The notes under the pieces: generated by a model
What the model was told of the DNA's origin: nothing
Seen by the model: the letters and a program-made list of their open reading frames with translations, nothing else
Database searches by the model: none
Position numbers and translations under genes: made by a program
NCBI GenBank assembly: GCA_963836205.1
Contig: CAWIIV010000015.1
Span: 96,001-160,000, forward strand
Length of the DNA: 64,000 bases
Origin: an uncultured Acidimicrobiia bacterium
Lineage (GTDB): Bacteria > Actinomycetota > Acidimicrobiia > Acidimicrobiales > AC-14
Direction: 5' to 3'
Shown: piece by piece, positions 5,087 to 32,112 of the stretch
Numbering within the stretch: the stretch's first letter is position 1
Layout of the letters: each line of letters opens with the position of its first letter

Positions 5087-6232
5087 ATGGCGACTCCCGA
5101 GCAGGCGACGGCGGCGTTGGCGGCGGTGAGCGAGGCCGTGCTCGGGGTGGCGGGCGACCTGTCGGTCGCGACCGTCCTCCGACGGTTGGCGGAGGCGGCC
5201 CAGCAGCTGGTGGGCGCCCGCTACGCGGCCATCGGCGTCCCCGACGACGATGGCGACGGCTTCGCCCAGTTCATCCACGTGGGGATGAGCGACGAGCTGG
5301 TCGACGCGATCGGCCCCCTCCCCAGGACCCACGGGCTCCTCGGGTCGATGCTGGTCGACCCCATCCCCTACCGCACCGACGACGTGCGGGCCGATCCCCG
5401 GTTCCGTTGGTGGCCGGCGGCCCACCCCCGGATGCGGTCGTTCCTGGGCGTGCCCATCGTCTTCAAGGGCGACGTGGTGGGGGCGTTCTACCTGGCCGAC
5501 AAGGAGGCGGGCGAGCGGTTCACCGACGACGACGAGTCGCTCATCGGCCTGCTGGCGGCCCACGCCGCCATCGCCATCGAGAACGCCCGCCTCTACGAGC
5601 AGAGCCGGGAGCTGAGCATCGTCGAGGAGCGCAACCGCATCGCCCTGGAGCTGCACGACGCCACCGCCCAGACCCTGTTCGGCATCCGCCTGGCGGCCGA
5701 CACCGCCCTCGGCCTGGTGGCCACCGACCCCGACCGGGCCTCGGCCGAGCTGGCCACGGTGCGCGACCTGGCCGGCACCGCCGCCACCGAGCTGCGCTCG
5801 CTGATCTTCGCCCTGCGGCCGGCCGCCGTCGCCGCCGACGGGCTGATCGCCGCCCTCGGCAAGCACGTCGAGCTCCTCGGCCGCACCCACCGGCTGCACA
5901 TGGCCGTGCACGCCGACGGGGCCGGGCTGGCCGACCTGCCGGACGACGTCGAGGCCGACCTCTACCGGGTGGCCCAGGAGGCGCTCAACAACGTTGTCCG
6001 CCACGCGTCGGCCACTTCGGTGACCGTGACTCTCTCGTCGGCCGACGGCACGGTCACCCTCACCGTGGCCGACGACGGGGCCGGCTTCGACCCCGCCGCC
6101 CGCAGCATCCGCGCCCACCGCCTGGGCCTGACGTCGATGGCGGCCCGCACCGCCCGCCACGGCGGCACCACCCGGATCGAGTCCGCCGCCGGGAAGGGCA
6201 CCACCGTCACCGCCGAGGTCCCGCGGCCGTGA
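5087..6232 (+). CDS. GAF-domain sensor histidine kinase (HisKA_3)
   Basis: GAF domain, EERNRIALELHD H-box, QEALNNVVRH, DDGAGF, GLTSM. Confidence 0.93.
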   Translation: MATPEQATAALAAVSEAVLGVAGDLSVATVLRRLAEAAQQLVGARYAAIGVPDDDGDGFAQFIHVGMSDELVDAIGPLPRTHGLLGSMLVDPIPYRTDDVRADPRFRWWPAAHPRMRSFLGVPIVFKGDVVGAFYLADKEAGERFTDDDESLIGLLAAHAAIAIENARLYEQSRELSIVEERNRIALELHDATAQTLFGIRLAADTALGLVATDPDRASAELATVRDLAGTAATELRSLIFALRPAAVAADGLIAALGKHVELLGRTHRLHMAVHADGAGLADLPDDVEADLYRVAQEALNNVVRHASATSVTVTLSSADGTVTLTVADDGAGFDPAARSIRAHRLGLTSMAARTARHGGTTRIESAAGKGTTVTAEVPRP

Positions 6233-21043: not shown

Positions 21044-21157
21044 CGTGCCGTGGTTCGTCGCCGCGCCGCTGATGTGCCGATCGAGAACGGCGTCCACGGA
21101 GCGATACCCGTCGTCGGCCACGAGCGGGGCCTCGTCAGAGATCCGGCATTCCCTCTC
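21044..21157. repeat. Diverged ~113-bp repeat, copy A (copy B at 31999-32112)
   Basis: Shared blocks ccgatcgagaacg, ccacggagcgatacccg and gagcggggcc.cgtcaga. Confidence 0.75.
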
Positions 21158-21351
21158 AAGTGCCGCATATTCGATCGGATGCGTATTCGTCAGCGACCGG
21201 TCGGAGGGCTCCTGACCAGCATGTCTGCGTCCCGGCTCCGGCTGTGAGGGTCGTCGATGGCGAGGGCTAGATGGGCTCTGACCTGGGCATTCGCGCGGTG
21301 GTCGCATCAGATGATTGACTCCGTCTTCTATTTCGCGGCCTTGGGGAGAGC

Positions 21352-22464
21352 GTGCAACGCCACATCGAGGTCCGTGGAGCGGCCCAGCTCCACCTGGTTG
21401 ACGACGTCGGGCTGCTCGATCCCGAGGGCCACGTCTTCGAGGCGATGCTCGACGGGTGGCGCTCCCAGCAGCTGAGCCGCAACCTCGCCTTCAGCACCAT
21501 CGACGCCGGGGCCCGGGTGGTGCGCCGCTTCCGGGGCGACGTCGAGGACTGGCCCTGGCGGTGGTCGCCGGGCCAGCTCGAGGGCTGGTCGGCCGAGCGG
21601 CGGGTCGAGCGCCGGTGGGCGCACTCGACGCTGCGGTCCTATCAGCAGTCGTTGCGCTCGTTCCTGGCTTACGTGGTCGACCCCGTCTATGGCTGGGACA
21701 GCGAATGCCTGACCCGCTTCGGGACCCACGCGGTGCAGATCTGCGGGCCCACCAGCGCCGCGGTCCACGTCACCGACTACGAGGGCCGGCCCGGGCGGCG
21801 GTCCCTGACCAGGGCGGAGCTGCAGGCCCTGTTCGACGCGGCCGACGACGCGGTGGCCTCCATCCGCACCCGGGGTCGCAAGGGCTGGGTGCCGGCGTTT
21901 CGCGACGCCACCATGTTGAAGGTCCTCTATGGCTGGGGGCTGCGCCGGCGCGAGGCCCTGATGCTTGAAGCGGCCGACTTCGGCTCCAACCCCCAGGCCC
22001 CGGAGTTCGGCGACTTCGGCGTCTGCTACGTCCGCTGGGGCAAGGCCAGCCGGGGCTCCGCCCCCCGGCGGCGCAGCGTGCTGACGGTGATGGGCTGGAC
22101 GGCGGAGGTCATCGGCGAGTGGGTCAACGACATCTGGCCCCACGTCCGGGCCGACGGCGAGGGTGGCCTGTGGCCGTCGGAGCGCCGGCCCCGGGTCAGC
22201 GCCGACCGCCTCAACGCCGCCTTCGCCCGGGCCGCGGCCGACGCCGGACTGCCGGCCGGGCTGAGCCCGCACTGCCTGCGCCACTCCTACGTGACCCATC
22301 TCATCGAGGACGGCTTCGACGTGCTGTTCGTCCAGCAGCAGGTCGGCCACGAGCACGCCTCGACCACCTCGATCTACACCTCGGTGTCGTCGGACTACAA
22401 GACCCGGGTCCTGCGCGCCGCCCTCGACCGGGTGGTGGCCGAGGCCAAAGGAGCCACGCCGTGA
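21352..22464 (+). CDS. Tyrosine recombinase/integrase
   Basis: Full catalytic set: GLRR, GK, HCLRH, VGH, TSIYT. Confidence 0.93.
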   Translation: MQRHIEVRGAAQLHLVDDVGLLDPEGHVFEAMLDGWRSQQLSRNLAFSTIDAGARVVRRFRGDVEDWPWRWSPGQLEGWSAERRVERRWAHSTLRSYQQSLRSFLAYVVDPVYGWDSECLTRFGTHAVQICGPTSAAVHVTDYEGRPGRRSLTRAELQALFDAADDAVASIRTRGRKGWVPAFRDATMLKVLYGWGLRRREALMLEAADFGSNPQAPEFGDFGVCYVRWGKASRGSAPRRRSVLTVMGWTAEVIGEWVNDIWPHVRADGEGGLWPSERRPRVSADRLNAAFARAAADAGLPAGLSPHCLRHSYVTHLIEDGFDVLFVQQQVGHEHASTTSIYTSVSSDYKTRVLRAALDRVVAEAKGATP

Positions 22465-22790
22465 AACGCAGCGTCGCCTATCGCTGGGCCCTGCGGGAGG
22501 TGATGGCCACCCACGGTCTGTGGAAGACCTCCGACCTGGCCCCGCTGCTGGCGGAGCGGGGCGTGGAGCTGTCCCCGGCCCAGGTCTACCGCCTGGTGGC
22601 CCGCACCCCCGAGCGCCTGTCGCTGCCCACCCTGGCCGCCCTGTGCGACATCTTCGCCTGCACCCCCGCCGACCTCATCGAGTGCTCCGTCGTGCCCACC
22701 GGAGCGAAAAAGCCCAGCCCAGCGGGGTCGGTGGTCGACCTCGCCGCCGTCGGTCGACCCCGCCGGGCGCGTGTCGGGCCGCCGGGGTGA
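22461..22790 (+). CDS. Xre-family HTH protein
   Basis: GTGA overlap with the integrase; LSPAQVYRLV..PERL..LAALCDIF.C.PADL. Confidence 0.85.
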   Translation: MKRSVAYRWALREVMATHGLWKTSDLAPLLAERGVELSPAQVYRLVARTPERLSLPTLAALCDIFACTPADLIECSVVPTGAKKPSPAGSVVDLAAVGRPRRARVGPPG

Positions 22791-24202
22791 GCGTCTCCGG
22801 GGCGGCGTCGGCGGCGACGACGCCGGCCCGTGCGTGCTCGCTGTGCGGTTCGTCCGCCGACATGAAACGGCAGCGGCTGGTGTGTGCCCGCTGCCGTCTG
22901 CGCCACCTCAGCGTGGAGGTTCTCGACGACGGCCACGGCTGCGTCGACGCCCGCCTCCTCGGCCTGCACGAGGGGCTGTGCGCCATGGCCGTGCCCCACA
23001 ACGGCCGGTGCTGGCTCGGCCAGCCCGCGGTGCGGGAGCGGCTCCGTCGCCTCGTCAGCGGCGAGGTCGCCCTCACCCACGACGGCGTCGACACCCTGGC
23101 CGCCGGGCTCGGGCGGGAGTACCTGCGCGAGCTGCTGGTGGCGCACCGGGTCCTGCCGGCGAGGGACAAGTACCTGGCCGCCTTCGAGCGCTGGACGACG
23201 ACCCGCCTCGACACCGTCCCCGCCGGCGAGGACCGCCAGCTGATCCGCACCTACCTGGCCTGGCACCACCACCGCCGGCTGCGGGAGCGGGCCGAGCTCG
23301 GCCTCCTGCACGAGTCGACGGCCCAGTCCGCCCGCCAGCAGACCAACGTCGCCGTCGCCTTCCTGGCCCGGCTGGCGGAGCGGGGCCGGTCCTTGGCCGA
23401 CTGCCGCCAGGCCGACATCGACGAGTGGTTCGCCACCGGCACCACCACCCGCTGGGCCCTGCGGAACTTCCTCACCTGGGCCATCGTCCAGCGGCGCTGT
23501 CCGGCGCTGGAGGTTCCCCGCTACCGGGGCCGCAGCGCCCCGGCACTGTCCCAGCAGGTCCGCCTGGTGATCCTCAACCGGCTCTTCACCGACACCGACG
23601 TCGAGCTGTCCGACCGCGTCGCCGGCTGCCTGGTGCTCATCTACGCCCAGCCCATCGCCCGCATCCGGACCCTCACCGTCGACGACCTCGACCGCCGGGG
23701 CCAGGAGACGTGGATCCGCTTCGCCCGGGAGCACGTGCCCCTGCCCGAGCCCGTCGGCGAGCTGGCCACCACGCTGGCCGCCACCGCCCGGCGCAACATG
23801 GCCACCGCCGCCAACCCGACCTCGCCCTGGCTGTTCCCGGGCCGGGCACCCACCCAGGCGGTGCAGGCCGAGCAGCTCGCGGAGCGCCTCGCCCGCCTCG
23901 GCATCTCCCGCGTCGGTCGGTTGGCTGCGCTCAACAGCCTCGTCGCCCAGGTGCCCGGTCCCGTCCTCGGACAGCTCATCGGCTACAGCGCCACGATCAT
24001 CGCCCAGCACGCCTCCGCGCAGGGCGTCGACTGGGCCTCCTACGCCGCCCTCAAGTCCCCGGCGAACGGGCTCACTGACCGCGATTACGCACGACTCGAA
24101 TATGCGTCTCTACCAATCGGCTGGCCCGGACAGTCGACACGGAGCATCCTGGGGCGGGTGGACGGATTCTTCCTTGGGGGTTCGATCGCCCCCATGGGCT
24201 GA
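22787..24202 (+). CDS. Zn-finger plus catalytically degenerate tyrosine-recombinase-like protein
   Basis: CSLC/CARC at the N-terminus; DRVAGCLVLIYAQP..RI..L...D and WLFPG resemble recombinase boxes but lack R/HxxR; frame runs through the right TIR. Confidence 0.7.
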   Translation: MSVSGAASAATTPARACSLCGSSADMKRQRLVCARCRLRHLSVEVLDDGHGCVDARLLGLHEGLCAMAVPHNGRCWLGQPAVRERLRRLVSGEVALTHDGVDTLAAGLGREYLRELLVAHRVLPARDKYLAAFERWTTTRLDTVPAGEDRQLIRTYLAWHHHRRLRERAELGLLHESTAQSARQQTNVAVAFLARLAERGRSLADCRQADIDEWFATGTTTRWALRNFLTWAIVQRRCPALEVPRYRGRSAPALSQQVRLVILNRLFTDTDVELSDRVAGCLVLIYAQPIARIRTLTVDDLDRRGQETWIRFAREHVPLPEPVGELATTLAATARRNMATAANPTSPWLFPGRAPTQAVQAEQLAERLARLGISRVGRLAALNSLVAQVPGPVLGQLIGYSATIIAQHASAQGVDWASYAALKSPANGLTDRDYARLEYASLPIGWPGQSTRSILGRVDGFFLGGSIAPMG

Positions 24203-24772: not shown

Positions 24773-26202
24773 GGTCACGTCCACGGACGTGGTGTATGAC
24801 CACCACCACGTCAACCTCGGGGACTTGTTTACCCCACCTTGGCCAGGTCGGTGTCGTTGGTCGTGTCATCGAGCCCTCCGTCGATGACGATCATTCGGGC
24901 CTTGGCCAGCAGCTCGGGGGACATGTAGCGCCGGGCGACGGCCCACTCGTCGTTCTGCTCGGCCAGCACTGCCCCCACGAGGCGGATCACGGCGGCCCGG
25001 TTGGGGAAGATGCCGACCACGTCGGTGCGCCGGCGCAGCTCCTTGTTGAGCCGCTCCTGGGGGTTGTTGGACCAGATCTGGCGCCAGTGCTCCTTGGGGA
25101 AGGTGGTGAAGGCCAACAGGTCCGCCCGGGCGTCGATGAGCATCCCGGCGGCCTCGGGGTACTTGGCCACCAGCTGTTCCACCACCCGGGCGTGCTGAGC
25201 GACGACCTGGGTGGCATCGGGCTGCTCGAAGATGGTGCGCACCCCCGTGGCCACCATGGTCTGGGCCGAGCGGGGCACCTTGGAGAGCAGGTTGCGCACG
25301 AAGTGGGTCCGGCAGCGCTGCCAGGTGGCGCCCGGCAGCACCCCCGCGATGGCGGCCTTGAGGCCCTCGTGGGCGTCGGAGACGACGAGGCACACCCCCG
25401 ACAGGCCCCGGGCCACCAGTCCCCGCAGGAACGTCGTCCAGCCTGCTCCCGTCTCGGTGGTGAACACGTCCATGCCCAGGATCTCCCGGTGCCCGTCGGC
25501 GTTGACGCCGCAGGCCACGGCGCAGGCGATGTTGACGATGCGGCCCTCCTCCCGCACCTTCTGGGTCAGCGCGTCGATGGCCACGTAGGCGTAGGGCCCG
25601 GCGTCGAGGGGCCGGGAGCGGAAGGCGTCGACGGCGGCGTCGAGGCTGCGGGCCATCTCCGAGACCTGGGACTTGGAGATCCCGTCGATGCCCATGGACT
25701 GCACCAGGGCGTCCACCCGCCGGGTCGACACGCCGGCCACGTAGGCCTCGGCCACCACCGCCACCAGGGCCTTCTCCGCCCGCCGGCGGGGCTCGAGCAG
25801 CCAGTCGGGGAAGTAGCTGCCCGAGCGCAGCTTGGGCACGGCCAACTCGATGGTGCCGGCCCGGGTGTCGAAGCCACGGCCGCGGTAGCCGTTGCGGGAG
25901 TTCACCCGCTCCGGGCTGCGCTCGCCCCAGGCCGCGCCGCAGGCGTTGTCGGCCTCGGCCGACATGAGCTGCTCGGCGAAGACCTTGACCATGTCGCGGA
26001 TGACGTCGTTGCCGCCCTCGCCGTCGATGTGCTTGCGCAGCCAGGCGAGTGCGCTAAAGGTGTCAGGGACCACCGTGTTCCTCCTCAGTTGGTTGCTTGG
26101 TCTCTTCCTTCTGAGGTTGACGCGGTGGTCGTCGCGTCGGGGGGATGGTCAGGCCGTCAGGCCCTCAGCGCCGACTCGTACACCACGTCTGTGGACGCAA
26201 CT
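24773..26202 (-). mobile_element. IS256-family insertion sequence (copy 1)
   Basis: ~27-bp imperfect TIRs (cgtccac.gacgtggtgta); 9-bp target duplication ACGAGTGAC at 24764-24772 and 26203-26211. Confidence 0.92.
24829..26073 (-). CDS. IS256 mutator-type transposase
   Basis: RNGY, PKLR.GSYFP, GVSTR, SDAH.GL, WQRCRTH, NNPQERLNKELRRR. Confidence 0.95.
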   Translation of the reverse strand: MVPDTFSALAWLRKHIDGEGGNDVIRDMVKVFAEQLMSAEADNACGAAWGERSPERVNSRNGYRGRGFDTRAGTIELAVPKLRSGSYFPDWLLEPRRRAEKALVAVVAEAYVAGVSTRRVDALVQSMGIDGISKSQVSEMARSLDAAVDAFRSRPLDAGPYAYVAIDALTQKVREEGRIVNIACAVACGVNADGHREILGMDVFTTETGAGWTTFLRGLVARGLSGVCLVVSDAHEGLKAAIAGVLPGATWQRCRTHFVRNLLSKVPRSAQTMVATGVRTIFEQPDATQVVAQHARVVEQLVAKYPEAAGMLIDARADLLAFTTFPKEHWRQIWSNNPQERLNKELRRRTDVVGIFPNRAAVIRLVGAVLAEQNDEWAVARRYMSPELLAKARMIVIDGGLDDTTNDTDLAKVG

Positions 26203-26544: not shown

Positions 26545-28003
26545 GAGGATGTCCCGAGTTCCGTGGAACTTCGGTGGCGGCCCCGATGATCAGGCGGCTA
26601 CTTCCCCATCCTCGCACGGGGGTGCGACAACCTTCGTGACGTGAGCGTCAAGGGCGGTCCGGAGGGCGGGCAGGTGGAGAAATCCGTTCACCCGGCGGAA
26701 CTGCTTGGCCGCCTCCACCATGCCCGCCGCACACCAGCGCAGCGCCATCGTCCCGTCCCGCCAGCGCTTCACGTTGGTCGAGTGATCCCGGCAGATCTCG
26801 ATCATCGACTCGATGGCGTTGGTCGAGCGCAGCGTTCGGGCCAGCGTCGGCGGCACCCCGAGGCGGCTGACGGTGAGCGTCTCGGCCAGGCCCTCCCGCA
26901 GGCTGCCAGCGGCACCGGGGTGGCCCTTGTCCAGATCCCGGGCCAGGGCTTCGAGTGTCGCCTCGGCGGCCAACGCGTCAGCGTCGTGGTAGGCCGCTCG
27001 CATCTTGCGGGCCACCGTGGCCGCCATGTCCTTGGGCAGTCGCGACTCGACATTGCGGATCTTGTGGAGCTGGCAACGAGCCACGACCGGGTGGTCGAAC
27101 ACCGCCTTGACCGCCGCCACCAGCGCCTTTGCCCCGTCGAGCACGCACAGGATGGGCCTGGTGGTGTCCAGGCCCCGATCCCGAAGGCCGGTGAGGAGGT
27201 CCTTGACGATGGTGGCGTTCTCGGTGTCGCCCTCCACCACCCCGAGCGGGTGCTTCGTCCCGTCGATGCCGATCCCCAGTGCCACCACGCAGACGTGGTC
27301 CGCGAAGTGCACGCCGTCGATCATCAGCGCCACCAGGTCGAGGCCCGACAGGTCGGCGGCCAACATGGTGGCCAGGGCCGATTCGGTGGCGGTCACGAAC
27401 CGCCGGCTGACCGCCGACTTCGACTTCGATCGAGCTGCTGCCTCGACCCCGGTGCCGACCGGCTCGAGTCCGGCCGAGTACCGCCGAGTCGACAGCTTGG
27501 CCATCATGCGCTCCAGCGCCATCGAATCGAGCAGCTCGGTGGAGGCGAACAGGTCGTAGGCCGGCACCGCCACCTCGGCGGTTCCGTCCACGCTGCGCAT
27601 GCGCGGCCGCTGCACCGGCAACCGCCGCCCGCCGAGGGTCACCGAGCCGTCCTCGGTTCCGTGGCGGACGGCGGTTCGATCGGGATCATGGACGCCCTTG
27701 GGCCCGCAGGCGGCGGTGACGCTCTCCTGCATCATCACGTGCATGACCTGCAGCCCAGCCCCGACGGCCAAGGCGAGAAGGCCCTCGCGCACTGTCTCGG
27801 CCAGCTCGGCCATGGCCAGGCTCACGGTGTCGGGCAGGGCGAGCTCGGCGGTCGCCGCGTGCGCGGCCTTGGTCTGATAGTTCTTCTTCACTGGCGGTCC
27901 CCTCGCTGGTCGAGTGACTTGGCGGTCGCCCGACACCTACCATCCGGCAGGTCTCAGGCGGGGGACCGCCACCTCAAACTTCTACGACGACCGGGACAAC
28001 CCT
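26545..28003 (-). mobile_element. IS256-family insertion sequence (copy 2, different subgroup)
   Basis: Ends gaggatgtcccg / cgggacaaccct; target duplication AGCGGGGC(G) at 26537 and 28004. Confidence 0.88.
26590..27891 (-). CDS. IS256-family transposase
   Basis: LSTRRY, MIDG, LDGAKAL, RCQLHK, STNAIES; start probably GTG of VKKNYQ. Confidence 0.92.
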   Translation of the reverse strand: MKKNYQTKAAHAATAELALPDTVSLAMAELAETVREGLLALAVGAGLQVMHVMMQESVTAACGPKGVHDPDRTAVRHGTEDGSVTLGGRRLPVQRPRMRSVDGTAEVAVPAYDLFASTELLDSMALERMMAKLSTRRYSAGLEPVGTGVEAAARSKSKSAVSRRFVTATESALATMLAADLSGLDLVALMIDGVHFADHVCVVALGIGIDGTKHPLGVVEGDTENATIVKDLLTGLRDRGLDTTRPILCVLDGAKALVAAVKAVFDHPVVARCQLHKIRNVESRLPKDMAATVARKMRAAYHDADALAAEATLEALARDLDKGHPGAAGSLREGLAETLTVSRLGVPPTLARTLRSTNAIESMIEICRDHSTNVKRWRDGTMALRWCAAGMVEAAKQFRRVNGFLHLPALRTALDAHVTKVVAPPCEDGEVAA

Positions 28004-31998: not shown

Positions 31999-32112
31999 CG
32001 TGCCGTTGTTCGTCGCCGGGCGACTGACGTAACCGATCGAGAACGCCGCCCACGGAGCGATACCCGGCGCTGGGCAGGAGCGGGGCCGCGTCAGAATTCG
32101 GCAGTTCCTGTC
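31999..32112. repeat. Diverged ~113-bp repeat, copy B
   Basis: Aligns with 21044-21157. Confidence 0.75.

Follow-up and report, generated by a model that had tools for sequence, protein, structure and literature searches.

The window analysed here, a stretch of 64,000 nucleotides from an uncultured Acidimicrobiia bacterium (contig CAWIIV010000015.1, positions 96,001 to 160,000), carries at 21158-24120 on the + strand a mobile unit of approximately 2963 bp, delimited by comparison of copies and by the limits of matching metagenome contigs. The unit contains three genes only, without cargo or nuclease. These are three + strand open reading frames (ORFs), at 21352-22464, 22461-22790 and from 22787 onward, each pair overlapping by GTGA. 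Gene 1 (21352-22464, +) encodes an apparently intact tyrosine recombinase (YRec) of 370 amino acids, which matches Phage_integrase (Pfam PF00589) at 3.9e-19 (69.5 bits, cut-off 27.1). Across 27 orthologues R198, H307, R310 and Y342 show no variation, and K231 and H333 almost none; by our own reading of the motifs these six residues would form the full catalytic set, the R-K-HxxR-H-Y series that an initial annotation of this DNA had recognised in the gene. Gene 2 (22461-22790, +) encodes a small protein, of 109 amino acids, with a helix-turn-helix (HTH) of the Cro/C1 type (Pfam HTH_26, 5e-17). Gene 3, which occupies 22787-24078 (+) when the frame and stop of its family are used, encodes a TnsF-like protein with a zinc ribbon, a helical region, and core-binding (CB) and catalytic (CAT) domains of the recombinase type.

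The genes are bracketed by the only two exact copies of the 11-mer CGCATATTCGA in the window, at 21164 (+) and 24106 (-); together with the ORF coordinates this pair bears out the original description of three GTGA-coupled genes between inverted repeats. When up to one mismatch was allowed there were 2 matches against 0.40 expected, a number reached by 6 of 100 shuffles. Each arm is composed of two direct 8-mers of the form GCRTRTTC, 15-16 bases apart: the left repeat (21164-21188, +) holds GCATATTC at 21165-21172 and GCGTATTC at 21181-21188, and the right repeat (24083-24106, -) holds two 8-mers read on the - strand. Of 58 related loci, 25 have this two-repeat motif at the left end, 28 have it at the right and 21 at both, compared with 2/348 in controls on the wrong strand or in internal stretches, so that the ends are conserved among homologues, a check set by the initial annotation. 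In more distant relatives (Streptomyces, Arthrobacter and others) the ends have diverged. The right end carries a further 12-14 conserved bases beyond the repeat, which in the window are TCTCTACCAATCGG (24107-24120, +) and do not differ between copies; in most of 21 loci the right repeat is followed by TCTCCACCAGTC or something close to it. At the left end, alignment of 17 loci revealed in all 17 a conserved block some 120-160 bases in, with invariant and near-invariant columns, while the DNA between repeat and block is not conserved. In the window this subterminal block lies upstream of gene 1 at 21279-21321 (+) and includes the palindrome CATCAGATG at 21305-21313, which the initial annotation had proposed as a possible operator for the HTH protein; the block may hold protein binding sites or a promoter-operator. 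The left end is long and multi-site, and the right end is short.

The true extent of the unit is clear from comparison with other copies. In another Acidimicrobiia genome a copy (L010, 4361-7332) is 99.3% identical over window positions 21143-24120, with unrelated DNA on both sides, and clean identity runs from AAGTGC at 21158 to ...CCAATCGG at 24120. The unit thus exceeds the inverted repeats by 6 bases on the left and 14 on the right; the bounds of 21164-24106 first assigned to it are those of the repeats and not of the element. Where the backbones of the two genomes are homologous they are only 89-92% identical, compared with 99.3% for the element, and in one genome at least the element must therefore be far more recent than the divergence of the genomes themselves. 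Metagenome contigs from four soil or hot-spring runs, from four studies (the best of the sequencing runs shares at most 0.22 of sampled words), match the element at 88-99%. Matching begins at 21155-21158 in three runs and ends at 24118-24120 in all four, a single contig of 4807 nt covers 21158-24118 with dissimilar sequence on either side, and metagenome depth drops to near zero in the outer bins of the flanks. Three other genomes contain pairs of copies, of 3124, 3136 and 3262 bp, that are 99.7-99.97% identical and have different flanks, and many homologues are held on stand-alone contigs of about 3.0-3.6 kb. Window positions 21158-24120 are a discrete mobile unit, and the earlier proposal of a tyrosine-recombinase transposon between inverted repeats is upheld. 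Also present in the metagenome data was a 5465-nt contig (run X1, record 8) in which the left end, up to 21189, is joined directly to 24070-24120; this could be a miniature, ends-only derivative or a deletion product.

No direct repeat or target duplication was present at the junctions of any copy, as had been noted initially for the window. In the 15-34 bases adjacent to the left end, copies with 99-99.9% identity elsewhere (the window and L010, L036 and L037, L031 and L033) agree at only about 75%, and CCGGC or CCGGT is found at a fixed offset in the left flank of 13 of the 20 loci where the flank is readable. In the window this target-derived flank, with its CCGGC motif, is at 21143-21157 (+). 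For a pair of Pseudarthrobacter copies, the 32 bases to the left and 8 bases to the right of both are contiguous at two element-free sites (L139 and L127); the left-flank stretch is therefore target DNA, with the element placed exactly between the two parts. The element inserts precisely, beside a short sequence motif, and creates no duplication. A simple reciprocal crossover with a common core at both junctions was considered and does not fit, since no direct repeat is common to the junctions. In the genome that carries L036 and L037 the 27-base flank motif is present at five places with up to 2 mismatches, two of them occupied and three empty; with up to 3 mismatches there were 16 matches, and 3 for a reversed control pattern.

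Further features of the target sites deserve mention. The left flank of the window copy (21044-21152) has an 83% identical, element-free paralogue about 11 kb away at 31999-32108, between a pentapeptide-repeat gene and a 1492-amino-acid gene with weak AAA/NACHT/STAND NTPase matches, and this may be an unoccupied target-like site. In the L036/L037 genome a group II intron (L288, 1303-1527, -; RF02003, 69.4 bits, E 7.3e-14) lies directly after an empty copy of the motif; it was the sole match in an Rfam scan of four target-like sites, and one short motif may attract two kinds of mobile element. One Pseudarthrobacter copy (locus L087, stretches 2260-2541 and 5803-6050) lies where a 315-base repeat ends; the repeat in turn has entered a gene that is uninterrupted in at least four related genomes (L140-L143), and the target motif there looks like the terminus of another repeated element. 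As a weak lead, the target motif might be an inverted copy of the first bases of the element: the constant CGGC/GCCG part would fit, and the variable positions, judged by eye, covary in some loci only. Around the window copy, the flanking ORFs scanned (all but some small ones) encode a hydrolase and Mutator-family transposase. Two genes for transposases of the Mutator/IS256 type lie to the right of the element, at 24829-26073 (-) and 26590-27936 (-), with Transposase_mut (Pfam) matches of 4.7e-139 and 4.4e-31. The neighbourhood of the element is a patch of mobile DNA.

The product of gene 3 has the CxxC pairs (C17 and C20, C33 and C36) that were pointed out in the initial annotation, and gave no Pfam or NCBIfam match above cut-off; a sub-threshold Phage_integrase match was seen in 12 of 66 family members. 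Its AlphaFold2 model, built from 66 sequences, has a mean predicted local distance difference test score of 91. Foldseek returned 26 matches to the model at E <= 0.001, and the listed ones all belong to the tyrosine recombinases (lambda Int, Cre, XerA, XerH, Tn1549 integrase and others). An independent structural aligner ranked at the top XerA (Z 13.9, but with a root-mean-square deviation, rmsd, of 14.5), XerH, Tn1549 integrase and an integron integrase; with XerH, 260 residues were aligned at Z 13.5 and rmsd 3.5. The structural matches span residues 145-426, corresponding to the CB and CAT domains, and the zinc ribbon and helical region (residues 1-145) are barely probed by these fold searches. 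The model thus predicts a recombinase fold for gene 3, whose lack would have told against the initial annotation. Also among the fold matches were MrpR (8a0a; Z 8.4, but rmsd 16.4) and SroF (9rd5; Z 10.4, rmsd 5.3), both of which we take to be non-catalytic DNA binders; unlike gene 3 these are stand-alone prophage regulators that have no zinc ribbon and lie outside a transposition operon.

The three proteins and their order correspond to those of Tsy (Faure et al. 2023, Mol Cell, PMC10293859). Tsy encodes a YRec, a small HTH protein and a TnsF-like protein in which N-terminal zinc fingers precede CB and CAT domains of the recombinase type; a GIY-YIG nuclease is sometimes encoded as well. ZooTsy, from Zoogloea sp. 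LCSB751, inserts in comM at its Walker B region; it forms circles, and it requires all of its proteins and the catalytic tyrosines of both the YRec and the TnsF-like protein, and its ends require 135 bp plus 12 bp of flank on one side and 20 bp on the other. In ZooTsy-type loci cargo genes can sit between the TnsF-like gene and the far end, and inverted repeats were not seen by the authors. For Tn6022 the same paper describes an inactivated TnsF as target selector.

Comparison of the gene 3 profile with 301 genomes of a Rhodocyclaceae-level family identified ORFs of approximately 540-610 amino acids in three of them (E 9e-23, 4.7e-22 and 4.1e-13); weaker matches were to ordinary recombinases of about 300 amino acids, and any match at E <= 0.01 was seen in 17/301. 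One of these places, locus L283, encodes in order a recombinase (384 amino acids), an HTH_26 protein (135 amino acids), a 603-amino-acid protein and a GIY-YIG protein, with overlapping gene ends. Gene 1 is 32% identical to the YRec of this locus (E 9e-47) and gene 2 is 30% identical to its HTH protein (E 2e-8), while gene 3 aligns with the 603-amino-acid protein with an hhalign probability of 99.5% (E 2.3e-22) over 429 columns that include the zinc fingers. At a second place, locus L284, the published end1 decamer follows directly after codons reading VLFLDELP, which by our reading would be the comM Walker B site; on that reading these loci are Tsy elements of the published kind.

The window element therefore shares with Tsy an operon in the order tyrosine recombinase, small HTH protein, zinc-finger protein with CB and CAT domains, each of the three proteins being homologous, in the same order, to those of a comM-inserted element. 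Its ends are likewise asymmetric and the target DNA flanking the recombinase side matters; of low weight are the AAGT with which the left end starts, as does the published end1, and the CCAGTC with which L036-type right ends finish, as does the published end2. Since order and proteins are homologous to an element described in 2023 (PMC10293859), the suggestion of a little-characterised, unnamed class could not be maintained. On present sequence comparisons the actinobacterial family is best regarded as an undescribed branch of Tsy and not as a wholly new class. It differs from the described elements in several respects: the tyrosine essential in ZooTsy is missing from the TnsF-like protein, which is only 18% identical to Tsy-type TnsF-like proteins; the element is of insertion sequence (IS) size, at 3 kb, without GIY-YIG nuclease or cargo; it has clear inverted ends of two direct 8-mers; its hosts are Actinomycetota; and the family is not in comM, the 20 sites examined having another common flank motif.

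Other known systems are less similar. The TnsF of Tn6022 is also a zinc-finger protein in which a recombinase-derived, catalytically dead body serves as target selector, but it works with TnsA, TnsB, TnsC and TniQ, none of which is encoded in the 3-kb unit, whose partner is a tyrosine recombinase. The SE elements and GInts of Gammaproteobacteria (Idola et al. 2023, PMC10214605) also rely on tyrosine recombinases, have inverted ends that are short and imperfect, and are specific in their targets, and their extra protein (Tfp, GinC) has a recombinase core-binding domain and no RHRY motif. These gamma-mobile-trio elements, however, combine two active recombinases with Tfp/GinC and Srap/GinD and are 7-16 kb long with cargo, whereas the window element has one active recombinase. 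Against the NCBIfam Gmt models gene 1 scored 24.9 bits with GmtY (cut-off 340) and 11.1 with GmtZ (cut-off 600), and gene 3 gave no match to them. Three coupled genes, tyrosine-recombinase chemistry and the lack of target duplication are shared with RIT elements and Tn554, as these are defined in PMC10214605 and PMC8138268. RIT elements have three recombinases, whereas gene 2 of the window is an HTH_26 protein and gene 3 lacks the catalytic set, and Tn554 has two recombinases and TnpC, whereas here only gene 1 has a catalytic set; the distinction from both that was drawn initially is sound.

It does not appear that gene 3 has kept the recombinase nucleophile. An hhalign comparison of the gene 3 and gene 1 profiles gave no match (probability 0.2), nor did the gene 3 family profile match any Protein Data Bank sequence; since the comparison with gene 1 gave no columns, the catalytic positions were mapped through the Tsy-type protein of 603 amino acids from L283. 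H408 of gene 3 aligns with Tyr584 of that protein, a residue with the same number as the published Y584F mutant (PMC10293859). In 66 relatives this column is R in 29, H in 19, W in 14, K in 3 and L in 1; in 99 further cluster representatives it is W in 61, H in 20, R in 8, I in 3, Q in 3, and V, K, N and Y in 1 each. With Tyr in 0/66 and 1/99 relatives, the canonical nucleophile has gone from this branch. These counts and the predicted fold agree, as regards the nucleophile, with the early description of gene 3 as recombinase-like without catalytic residues, and the role of target selector then proposed for it would parallel that published for TnsF (PMC10293859).

As sequenced, the gene 3 ORF continues to 24202, beyond the element, and the initial observation that it has no stop inside the element is correct for the sequence as it stands; it does not apply to the family. 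Two bases near 24060 (24057-24062, +), just before the stop, are absent from the L010 copy and from the contigs of all four metagenome runs, and without them the protein ends in RERAH at a TGA (24076-24078) inside the element. Relatives of 404-420 amino acids end 9-11 residues past a conserved ALKS/ALKA stretch. The missing stop is a frameshift particular to the window copy, replacing only the last 5 residues, and not a feature of the family; the two-base insertion may be an assembly error rather than a real change. In a 99% identical gene 3 relative on another contig (P0004) the N-terminus is in a different frame from the zinc ribbon of the window, so that near-identical copies differ by small indels at both ends of gene 3, either via decay or via errors of long-read assembly.

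The family is large. The gene trio was found in the same order in 9 of the first 11 loci, the other two being a truncation at a contig end and a fragment, and in 67 of the 88 locus records of a wider scan, which include four places fetched twice. Of the 21 remaining records 15 were profiled, the other six being cut by contig ends or fragments; in 8 of the 15 the recombinase gene lies further upstream because gene 3 is longer there, with 700-950 amino acids and extra zinc-finger repeats. These long TnsF-like forms (L073 1830-5769, L080 1827-5772 and similar) have three to five zinc-finger stretches. In some such loci the long ORF follows the recombinase ORF directly, leaving no space for a separate HTH gene, and there the HTH may be fused or lost. 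Searched against 1.84 billion entries, the gene 3 profile matched 8210 cluster representatives at E <= 0.001, of which 5249 matched at 1e-10 and 2081 at 1e-30, and species-representative genomes gave 423 confirmed stretches, of which the best 79 are all from Actinomycetota but for one labelled Dormiibacterota. Plasmids have homologues too, on 248 records (112 from Streptomyces, 56 from Rhodococcus, 19 from Arthrobacter, and further genera), under the labels hypothetical protein, XerD or regulator of the Fis family. On two plasmids, one of Rhodococcus and one of Nocardia, the trio is annotated as such genes, and the features listed for either stretch include no mobile element. No description of the actinobacterial trio was found in the literature searched, with ISfinder and TnCentral lying outside that search. 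The PSI-BLAST search of the Tsy authors gave 22,419 matches, of which two clusters were analysed (PMC10293859), and the actinobacterial branch may be among the remainder.

Taken together, we consider the element to be a cargo-free, IS-sized member of the Tsy family with a TnsF-like, non-catalytic target partner, a reading to which, as a whole, we assign a probability of roughly 0.75; that it is a mobile Tsy-family element of one kind or another is very probable. According to this reading the three translationally coupled genes would be expressed from the left end, and the YRec would bind the repeated 8-mers, pair both ends, and cleave and rejoin the strands. The element would then leave as a circle, as shown for ZooTsy, and re-enter at a new site. 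The TnsF-like protein, having kept a zinc ribbon and two DNA-binding recombinase domains and not the nucleophile tyrosine, would be a non-catalytic partner, and by analogy with the inactivated TnsF of Tn6022 it may recognise the target motif to the left of the insertion point and position the YRec there. The HTH protein may bind the subterminal block with its palindrome, as an architectural or directionality factor and as a regulator. The long left end, short right end and dependence on the left flank would mirror the 135 bp plus 12 bp and the 20 bp required by ZooTsy.

Several points weigh against this interpretation. Which protein binds which site is inferred throughout. The genome of the window has a single copy of the element, and its gene 3 is the one with the frameshifted tail. 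No joint of right end to left end was present in the metagenome contigs aligned to the element, although such contigs cannot show rare circles. The comparison with empty sites suggested in the initial annotation yielded paralogous element-free targets and no orthologous empty site: the L010 genome has only 282 bases of the window surroundings, the window's genome has only the far left flank of the L010 copy, and among 61 Pseudarthrobacter genomes no clean orthologous empty site was found for the flanks of that genus, the search giving paralogous element-free targets and, where one copy's right flank was concerned, a gene without interruption. The catalytic residues of gene 3 were placed by sequence alignment and secondary structure and not by superposed coordinates. 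R378 is kept in 66/66 and 96/99 relatives, R292 in 60/66, and Y419, 11 residues beyond H408, in 64/66 and 95/99; such conservation could reflect residual or relocated catalysis. Furthermore, since both tyrosines are essential in ZooTsy, a partner without one needs a different division of labour.

It is these kept residues, together with the glutamate that Tsy-type proteins have at the Y419 column, that make a relocated nucleophile the main rival explanation. Gene 3 would then still be an enzyme, its nucleophile moved to Y419 of the last helix, perhaps acting in trans, with each recombinase cutting one strand pair as in ZooTsy. The pattern is reciprocal, with Tyr in the canonical column of Tsy-type proteins and Glu in their Y419 column; in ZooTsy the tyrosines of both recombinases are reported to be essential (PMC10293859). 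Nevertheless, we regard this as quite unlikely: the positions of the lysine hairpin and first histidine (R314 and R375 columns) are not conserved in the gene 3 family, and the low proportion of members with even a weak Pfam integrase match also speaks against it. Y419 is in addition predicted, from our reading of the helices of the model, to sit in the C-terminal helix. In solved recombinases such as Cre this helix docks onto the neighbouring protomer and not into the active site.

The remaining alternatives concern the unit rather than gene 3. There is a minor but appreciable chance that the window copy is a dead relic of a mobile family, disabled by the frameshifted tail of gene 3 or by other small lesions; its being a single copy with a 2-base insertion before the stop would fit, as would the frameshifted N-terminus of P0004, small indels being frequent among copies. 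Against this, the change replaces only five residues and leaves genes 1 and 2, the two ends and all conserved blocks intact, the indel could be an error of assembly, and the near identity to the L010 copy argues for recent movement. Alternatively, the three genes could be the integration module of a larger island, prophage or integrative and conjugative element, with the inverted repeats incidental; the region is rich in mobile DNA, and cargo is possible beyond the TnsF-like gene in ZooTsy-type loci. This is very improbable, since identity to L010 and to the metagenome contigs ends within a few bases of the repeats on both sides, the pairs within genomes are of 3.1-3.3 kb, and many homologues make up stand-alone contigs of similar size. 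A fixed DNA switch, an immobile unit whose recombinase inverts the DNA between the repeats, would likewise place inverted repeats around a recombinase gene, as in invertible segments, but it is scarcely credible for a unit that is found in different contexts within and between genomes and on so many plasmid records.

Returning to the interpretation as a Tsy-family element with a non-catalytic partner, a broader proposal can be made tentatively, and we hold it to be somewhat doubtful: that Actinomycetota harbour an abundant, unnamed IS-like family in which a zinc-finger pseudo-recombinase, reading a short target motif that may form a hairpin, guides a single active tyrosine recombinase, the pseudo-recombinase being either a pure protein-based selector outside Tn7 or the bearer of a last-helix nucleophile.

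Tsy is known from one study and one reconstituted proteobacterial element, whose authors could not define the ends (PMC10293859). The new branch gives the family a minimal, 3-kb form with two 8-mers per end and a subterminal block on the recombinase side, and shows it to be far larger and more widespread than reported, its genes being annotated on plasmids only as hypothetical protein or XerD. The element also identifies a common source of the stand-alone contigs of about 3 kb and of the assembly breaks in actinobacterial genomes. It amounts to a natural experiment, in which the second recombinase lacks a catalytic tyrosine and yet is tightly linked to the first, and so bears on how TnsF became a target selector. 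Should gene 3 prove to be a selector, or to have moved its nucleophile, the family would be a natural, compact and retargetable system of site-specific insertion, and would show how TnsF-type selectors arose before Tn7 elements borrowed them.

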